From the sequence record MH383160: 64,000 bases of DNA. The stretch is one strand, 5' to 3'. This stretch comes from Escherichia phage UB. Of the stretch, positions 38,767 to 39,162 are shown piece after piece; the stretch's first letter is position 1, and each line of letters starts with the position of its first letter. The notes below the pieces were generated by a model. It was not told the DNA's origin and made no database searches. It saw only the letters and a list, made by a program, of their open reading frames with translations. A program made the translations under genes and the position numbers.

Positions 38767-39162
38767 TTAGATAACCTGGCGGCGTTTACTGTATACTGTT
38801 ACACGATTACCCTTACGATCATGTCGGATCTCTTTCTGGTTGCGAATCAGTTCACTTGGACGCTTAAGGTTTGCCAGGTGATCCGCGTGAGTCCATGCGG
38901 TGTGGTTTACCTGTACTTTGATATCAGAATCAGCGATAAACTCATCTTGTGCATCAAGTATTGACGCCAGTAAATCCGCTCGTTTTAGTTCTGCTGCTGT
39001 TAGTACTGGCTCCGGTGAATTCACAATATCAGAGATCTCTTTGAACTGTACGGCCCAGCGTTGACCTTTCGGTGCATCTTTGCCCATGTCTTTAAATGTT
39101 TCGCCTTCCTCGCGTGCAACAATACGGGCAGCTTCACGGGTAGCGTAAAATTTAGTAATCAT
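38767..39162 (-). CDS. hypothetical protein, FATRE...HDRKGNRVTVYS paralog
   Basis: ORF trimmed to ATG 39162 (MITKFYATREAARI); paralog of 50477..50743. Confidence 0.6.
   Translation of the reverse strand: MITKFYATREAARIVAREEGETFKDMGKDAPKGQRWAVQFKEISDIVNSPEPVLTAAELKRADLLASILDAQDEFIADSDIKVQVNHTAWTHADHLANLKRPSELIRNQKEIRHDRKGNRVTVYSKRRQVI

Follow-up and report, generated by a model that had tools for sequence, protein, structure and literature searches.

Type II toxin-antitoxin (TA) systems, such as DinJ-YafQ, YefM-YoeB and ParD-ParE, are the closest described counterparts of a gene cassette found in the window, that is, the whole 64,000-nucleotide stretch of Escherichia phage UB DNA that was analysed. 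Toxins of the YafQ type act on ribosomes. The cassette resembles these systems in consisting of two small co-directional genes with the putative neutraliser, here designated A, in front, and in encoding downstream of A a protein of a ParE-like/YafQ-like toxin-domain family. In addition, the N-terminal domain of A is structured and leads into an acidic segment of poor prediction quality, which would face a very basic predicted toxin, and a palindrome overlaps the promoter of A as a candidate operator. Unlike type II antitoxins, however, A shows no detectable sequence or fold similarity to the RHH, Phd/YefM, HTH or AbrB classes and bears an extra, strongly basic C-terminal beta-hairpin. A GC hairpin/terminator separates A from the ParE-like gene, whereas the frames of type II systems overlap or abut, and the cassette resides in the terminal repeat of strictly lytic jumbo phages rather than on a plasmid, prophage or chromosome. 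It is thus best described as a possible variant of the ParE/RelE-superfamily type II TA arrangement.

With regard to genome organisation, the direct terminal repeat (DTR) of Asteriusvirus that holds the cassette is comparable to the first-step-transfer region of T5 and to the early region of phage CBB, all three combining many small genes with strong host-type promoters and a presumed role in host takeover (PMC5259590). Clusters of RpoD-like promoters ahead of short ORFs in CBB, a related phage, have been read as marking early host-takeover genes (PMC5259590). The likeness to T5 is limited to organisation, the Asteriusvirus block having no homology to A1, A2 or dmp.

At the protein level, A and its second copy in the window, B, form a paralog pair that is ordinary as such and already catalogued as PHROG 8127, an entry devoid of function. 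Neither this entry nor PHROG 6265, which covers part of the same proteins, carries a function, a partner gene or a domain dissection, and a literature search found no paper on the PHROG 8127 family or its ParE-like module. What is added here is the domain dissection, the toxin-domain partner, the recurrence of the pairing, the correlation of an acidic linker with that partner, and a palindrome common to the promoters of A and B.

The paralog pair and its family

The original prediction held that two genes 11 kb apart in an early-like block belong to a duplicated small-gene family, sharing FATRE.AR..AR..G.TFKDMG.....RWAV and HDRKGNRVTVYS at their termini and differing in length and middle region. 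All of this is borne out: the quoted segments are correct for both genes, A is 131 aa long and B 88 aa with a gap in its middle, and the two lie 11.6 kb apart, both inside the DTR (Table 1). The original prediction gave neither the strand nor the palindrome common to the two promoters, and attached no meaning to the difference in length. Pairwise alignment and HMM searches agree that they are true paralogs. BLASTP aligns A with B at E=5e-20 (44 identities), the aligned N-terminal ~40 and C-terminal ~30 residues flanking a single ~45-residue gap in B, and the PHROG 8127 HMM matches both proteins over their full length. The Smith-Waterman score of 159 is far above that of shuffled controls (26.6 +/- 4.5, maximum 55, n=2000; z=29). 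Both tblastn and the family HMM detect exactly two family copies in the window. Translation of A is assigned to ATG 39162, which has AGGA 8 nt ahead (39174..39171) and agrees with homologues beginning MITKF; an alternative start at ATG 39171 was rejected, as it lacks an RBS and overlaps that AGGA. B has GGGA as its RBS, 7 nt ahead of its ATG.

Table 1. Features of the A and B loci and of the surrounding repeat in the window
Feature	Position	Strand	Details
Paralog A	38767..39162	minus	131 aa, MITKFYATRE...; PHROG 8127 HMM 1.6e-36 (residues 1-131)
Paralog B	50477..50743	minus	88 aa, MNIIYFATRE...; PHROG 8127 HMM 9.9e-27 (residues 1-87)
Direct terminal repeat (DTR)	33500..53219, inner boundary approximate	minus	blastn map to fEgEco12 1-20993
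Intrinsic-terminator-like hairpin, GGCGGGA-tcagt-TCCCGCC + T6	38720..38744	minus	also ARNOLD-annotated in phage G17
ParE_like (PF24732)/YafQ-like toxin-domain gene	38451..38705	minus	84 aa, pI 10.2; own RBS; PHROG 1525
Promoter of A, perfect TTGACA-17 nt-TATAAT	39207..39235	minus	12/12 match
Inverted repeat TAAAGTACTAT-N14-ATAGTACTTTA	39211..39246	.	brackets -35 and spacer of the A promoter; candidate operator
Inverted repeat TAAAGTACTAT-N9-ATAGTACTTTA	50784..50814	.	abuts TATAAT (50785..50780) upstream of B

The duplication is old, because synonymous sites are saturated: pS reaches 0.72 in the N block and 0.96 in the C block, with nucleotide identities of 62% and 47%, respectively. Even within the identical peptide HDRKGNRVTVYS, 8 of the 12 codons differ between A and B, all differences being synonymous. 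To judge from the sequences, the N-domain and the C-terminal hairpin are under purifying selection, without recent conversion. A recent duplication, gene conversion, or an assembly or terminal-repeat artefact, in which case A and B would not be two independently maintained genes, might be suspected from the repeat-rich region in which both lie and from the 21-kb terminal repeat of the genome. This explanation is refuted by the saturation, by identities of only 62% and 47%, and by the location of both copies within one DTR copy; the retention of both loci in dozens of Asteriusvirus genomes likewise argues against it, and its probability is negligible.

The family is narrowly distributed. A profile search of 1.84 billion representative proteins retrieved only 62 relatives, and tblastn located the family in 67 phage records, essentially all of them Rak2-like jumbo phages of Enterobacterales, together with the Vequintavirinae phage Av-05. 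Orthologues of A share 85-99% identity within Asteriusvirus and 31-44% in other Rak2-like phages; B-type orthologues are confined to Asteriusvirus. All 60 relatives match PHROG 8127, and 51 of the 60 also match the 42-position PHROG 6265, which corresponds to the N-domain of A and B. Neither Pfam (60 members scanned, E<=0.1) nor NCBIfam nor PADLOC contains a match for the family, and PDB sequences yield no significant match. Foldseek comparison of the A and B models with the PDB returned nothing significant (none below E=0.04), and against BFVD it returned uncharacterised homologues only.

The conserved core of the family is an N-domain of ~40 aa with the consensus FFxTRTxARxxAxExxGKxKDxGxDAPKGxRWAV, in which R9, D25, R35 and W36 are invariant. 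It is joined through a variable linker to a strongly basic C-terminal beta-hairpin ending in ...DRKGNxVTVYxKRR. In A, the N-domain (residues 1-40, beta-alpha-beta-beta) is followed by an acidic linker (41-98, net -7) and the hairpin (99-131, net +8); B retains the same N-domain and hairpin with the linker cut to ~20 non-acidic residues. AF2 models of both proteins (pLDDT 73 for A, with ~84 at both ends, and 81 for B) share the layout beta1-alpha1-beta2-beta3, a short helix, a low-confidence linker that is long in A, and a confidently predicted long C-terminal beta-hairpin. In distant relatives, the N-domain is joined to other C-terminal tails, e.g. '...GLTxNGASTYYxNIK'; the PDB profile matches of this tail were dismissed as spurious hits to antibody CDR2, and Pfam gives none.

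The terminal repeat, promoters and palindromes

The window is ~93-97% identical to the E. coli Asteriusvirus jumbo phages slurp01, G17, fEgEco12, PBECO4 and 121Q. The first ~21 kb of the genome are annotated as DTR in vB_Ec-M-J and fEgEco12, and the repeat of the latter has been confirmed by PhageTerm and restriction digests (PMC13070987). When fEgEco12 1-23000 is mapped onto the window, the physical left end falls at ~53219 and the DTR extends inward to ~33.5 kb. A and B correspond to fEgEco12 g040 and g03, both within the DTR, with B 2.5 kb from the genome end; each is therefore present in two copies per packaged genome. An ORF-poor stretch (~51600-54700) surrounds ~53219, the equivalent of fEgEco12 position 1; the window therefore derives from an assembly in which the unique region is fused, at its right end, to one collapsed copy of the DTR.

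The DTR forms a one-directional array of small genes with many hairpins and 13 perfect TTGACA-N16/17-TATAAT sites on the coding strand in 20 kb. All DTR genes in the window are transcribed away from the physical left end, an orientation that Asteriusvirus shares with the long terminal repeats of virulent phages. Depositors of fEgEco12 named a 'protein spackle' (g10), a DksA-like zinc finger (g030), a GNAT acetyltransferase (g031) and a protein kinase (g044) among the DTR genes, which fit a host-takeover block; the g044 counterpart is also called a kinase in Muenster and K64-1, where it lies two genes downstream of the ParE-like gene. Two minus-strand mechanical ORFs, 38179..38454 and 37879..38178, both start 'MTVLKCFS...' at TTG, and their shared N-termini represent translated promoter sequence (TTGACA...AGTACT...) rather than protein. 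The likely real start of the former is ATG 38400 (73 aa), and it has a weak winged-helix-like match to Penicillinase_R (E=0.16).

The promoter regions of A and B each contain an inverted repeat with 11-nt arms (Table 1). The pattern AAGTACTAT-N5..20-ATAGTACTT occurs exactly twice in 64 kb (0 expected), only at these two promoters. Its arms are kept in fEgEco12 and EJP2, where the spacers vary in sequence and length (10 and 9 nt at the B-type site), and shorter versions are found at family promoters of Hallingskeid, a metagenomic relative, fHe-Yen9-04 and SNUABM_47. The near-identity of the A and B promoter blocks, despite saturation of synonymous sites in the coding regions, points to constraint on these blocks. 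Because the -35 element of B is poor, transcription that starts at the 51148..51121 promoter may also extend through B.

Pairs of AGTACT sites are, however, also found around other early promoters (47945, 48730), and AGTACT exceeds expectation 12-fold across the genome. The palindrome may therefore be no private operator but a common promoter element that the duplication carried along. The arm spacing of 9-14 nt is, moreover, awkward for a rigid dimeric binder. Within the window, AGTACT is present 262 times, compared with 18.7 +/- 4.2 in dinucleotide-preserving shuffles (about 12-14-fold over), with the extended core CAGTACTG (GTACTG 14 times, CAGTAC 12 times). Its density is 3.2 per kb in coding sequence, where each of the three frames contains it, and three times higher in intergenic DNA (9.7 per kb); it is densest at 52-56 kb and is missing from ~17.3-25.0 kb and ~28.9-33.6 kb. 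A literature search found no paper describing this over-representation; a phage protein may bind or modify AGTACT.

A repeated early-promoter cassette is present on the minus strand at ~36802, 39651, 39921, 41230, 43965, 44985, 45214, 47945 and 48730. It consists, in order, of an A/T-rich upstream segment, TTGACA or TTGCAA, N8, AGTACTG, TATAAT, AG, TTTACAT and the 5'-leader hairpin GGGGAGAA-nnnn-TTCTCCCC. The promoters of A and B represent a AGTACTTTATAAT variant that lacks TTTACAT and the leader hairpin. Two identical hairpins with 12-bp stems, AAAGGGATTGACTCCGGTCAGTCCCTTT, are found on the minus strand at 37224..37251 and 40491..40518 and embed the TTGACT -35-like hexamer of a TG-extended TATTAT promoter; the hairpin pair is a repeated terminator/promoter composite.

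The ParE-like neighbour and the recurrence of the pair

The gene located 61 nt downstream of A, in the same direction, encodes a very basic product (net charge +9.7) that matches ParE_like (PF24732) at 6.4e-11 over profile positions 2-67 of 67; the score of 42.5 bits exceeds the gathering threshold (24.4). The window contains no second gene of this kind. Residues H15, R41, R58, H72 and Y75 of the ParE-like protein are invariant. Among genes downstream of family members in other phages, 8 of 10 match the same profile. In Muenster and K64-1, the homologue was independently annotated as a 'YafQ-like ribonuclease toxin' that might belong to a toxin/antitoxin complex, on the basis of an HHpred match to 4MMG_B (DinJ-YafQ) at 97.7%, and the upstream family member was left as a 'hypothetical protein'. 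A search of PDB sequences with the ParE-like profile gave no match, and hhalign against E. coli YoeB alone gave a probability of 0.2, both results being uninformative; the predicted fold of the neighbour is based on the Pfam match and on the HHpred note of the Muenster annotators.

The order of family gene, GC hairpin and ParE-like gene recurs at 14 loci in at least six phage lineages. By group, these comprise Asteriusvirus, Alcyoneusvirus (three), Eneladusvirus (two), Mimasvirus (three), Hallingskeid, fENko-Kae01/Munch and two metagenomic contigs; the named phages, apart from Asteriusvirus, are RaK2, phiKp_21, Muenster, Hallingskeid, fENko-Kae01, Munch, fHe-Yen9-04, SNUABM_47, GAP32, CBB and XbC2. 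A GC hairpin of 6-8 bp, varying in sequence, occupies all 14 intergenic gaps (40-119 nt), and the gap in the window contains no sigma70-like site of at least 10/12 among the matches listed. In the neighbourhood table, positions -1 and +2 around the pair are each filled by at least six different families, leaving the pair as the only constant adjacency. The ParE-like protein is found in 69 phage records and the family in 67, with a near-identical host breakdown, and EJP2 contains neither an A orthologue nor a ParE-like gene. Furthermore, the linker is acidic (net -3 to -12) in 13 of 13 distinct paired members measured, Muenster having been left out. Xanthomonas phage XaC1 has a divergent ParE-like gene (XaC1_35) preceded by ~1.1 kb without an annotated gene and with stops throughout all three forward frames (L030 820..1958); this stretch, in the place where other phages carry the family gene, may be a decayed partner.

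Several family members occur without such a neighbour, including B, Av-05, EJP2, N-domain-only proteins of 39-46 aa and P0110 (79 aa). No ParE-like neighbour accompanies the short distant members P0116 (39 aa) and P0110. B (fEgEco12 g03), which ranks third counting from the physical left end of the genome, likewise has no toxin-domain neighbour. At the B locus of EJP2, between the same flanking genes, lies a gene of 125 aa with the same C-terminus (DSVSRRVVEIKHDRKGNRVTVYS) and an intact linker, and B is therefore regarded as a derivative that lost ~38 aa of its linker in frame. Linker net charges of these solo members are +2 in B, +1 in Av-05 and -3 in EJP2. The existence of the solo members B, Av-05, P0110 and the 39-46-aa proteins points to a toxin-independent role of the N-domain.

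Two minus-strand genes just upstream of B, 50826..51065 (79 aa) and 51164..51583 (139 aa), fall into one BLAST cluster and hence constitute another paralog pair, of which the 79-aa protein matches DUF7249 (PF23907, 6.4e-12). The block formed by these two genes, the family gene and a 203-aa PHROG 5162 protein (49564..50175) is found again in EJP2 and, in part, in Av-05. An indel distinguishes window 50375..50468 from fEgEco12 2805..3340, such that g04 (78 aa), situated directly downstream of the B orthologue, and its promoter are missing from the window.

Proposed function and its biological meaning

The recurrent position of the long copy upstream of a ParE/YafQ-like gene raises the possibility that the family is an antitoxin-like partner or regulator that had gone unrecognised. 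The preferred reading, to which a probability of roughly 45% is assigned, is that A would act as an antitoxin-like neutraliser or regulator of the predicted toxin, with B as a solo derivative. Under the proposed mechanism, host sigma70 RNA polymerase would express both genes from the DTR, and A would be made first and in excess, since the terminator would attenuate read-through into the predicted toxin gene. The acidic linker of A, perhaps together with the C-terminal hairpin, could then bind and neutralise the very basic predicted toxin, while autoregulation may come about through binding of its N-domain to the AGTACT-centred palindrome that overlaps the A promoter. B would be a duplicated copy near the genome end that lost the acidic linker and has no toxin partner while keeping the N-domain, the hairpin and the palindrome-bearing promoter; lacking linker and partner, it probably carries out only the nucleic-acid-binding or regulatory half of the function.

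Several observations weigh against an antitoxin role. No similarity of the family to any known antitoxin class is detectable. A Phd/YefM-like fold was considered in view of a similar order of elements (beta-alpha-beta-beta-alpha) and was rejected, as hhalign against E. coli YefM, a single-sequence test of low power, gave a probability of 0.1 and hence no support. Type II TA operons do not typically have a canonical terminator between 'antitoxin' and 'toxin', and its presence here might leave the toxin-domain gene with little expression. Additionally, all paired loci belong to one broad jumbo-phage clade, so that common descent, and not selection, may account for part of the synteny.

The main alternative, plausible if on balance improbable, is one in which the family is a stand-alone small nucleic-acid-binding early protein, such as a regulator of early promoters or a takeover factor binding host DNA or RNA, and its adjacency to the ParE-like gene reflects gene order inherited within one clade. 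Such a role would be consistent with the solo members (B, Av-05, EJP2 and the relatives of 39-79 aa), with the attachment of the N-domain to other tails, with the basic character of N-domain and hairpin, with the terminator that separates the two genes, and with the restriction of all paired loci to Rak2-like jumbo phages. Inherited order alone, however, sits poorly with a pair that is the sole adjacency kept over 14 loci while both flanks turn over. The stand-alone role is also at odds with the linker, which is acidic next to the toxin-domain gene in every distinct paired locus measured and has lost this character in two of three solo copies, with the joint absence of A and the ParE-like gene from EJP2, and with the lack of a strong promoter of its own at the ParE-like gene.

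A further reading, considered very improbable, casts the family as an RNA- or ribosome-binding module, composed of an S4-like alpha-L helix or a uL22-like domain plus the basic hairpin, that delivers or tunes a YafQ-like ribosome-dependent RNase on host ribosomes instead of neutralising it. The N-domain does share with the S4 domain (PF01479) the helix pattern F-x-[AT]-T-R-x-x-A-R-x-x-[VA], after which come G and a beta-strand; 'FGATRAEARQLV' is present in S4 of the E. coli ribosome, and the best PDB sequence match of the N-domain profile, itself non-significant (E=0.88), is the S4 domain of Hsp15 ('FYKTRSLARNMVE-GGKVHYNG'). Likewise, the top Foldseek matches of model A, which are non-significant, come from ribosomal large-subunit structures; the size of the matched chains would presumably fit uL22, but their TM-scores are below 0.2. 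Membership in the S4 domain was rejected: unlike that domain, the family N-domain lacks the first alpha-L helix, hhalign against eight E. coli K-12 S4 domains gives a probability of 7.5% over 19 columns of one helix, and Pfam finds S4 in 0 of 60 members at E<=0.1.

An extended form of the antitoxin-like reading, which is unlikely as a whole, would make PHROG 8127 a new antitoxin/regulator fold that controls a DTR-expressed YafQ/ParE-like toxin in the first minutes of infection, providing a timed host shutoff. B would then serve as an orphan regulator at AGTACT palindromes, helping to switch early promoters and the AGTACT sites present genome-wide.

Hundreds of small early genes in jumbo phages have no known function, and here one conserved family is tied to a recognisable toxin-domain partner. 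Should the pairing reflect mere synteny, A and B would remain an ordinary duplicated hypothetical gene. If the antitoxin-like reading is true, the family would represent a new antitoxin or neutraliser fold, and strictly lytic jumbo phages would carry TA-like cassettes among their first-expressed genes. In that case, the partnered A and the linker-less solo B would also offer a natural contrast between toxin neutralisation and DNA binding.
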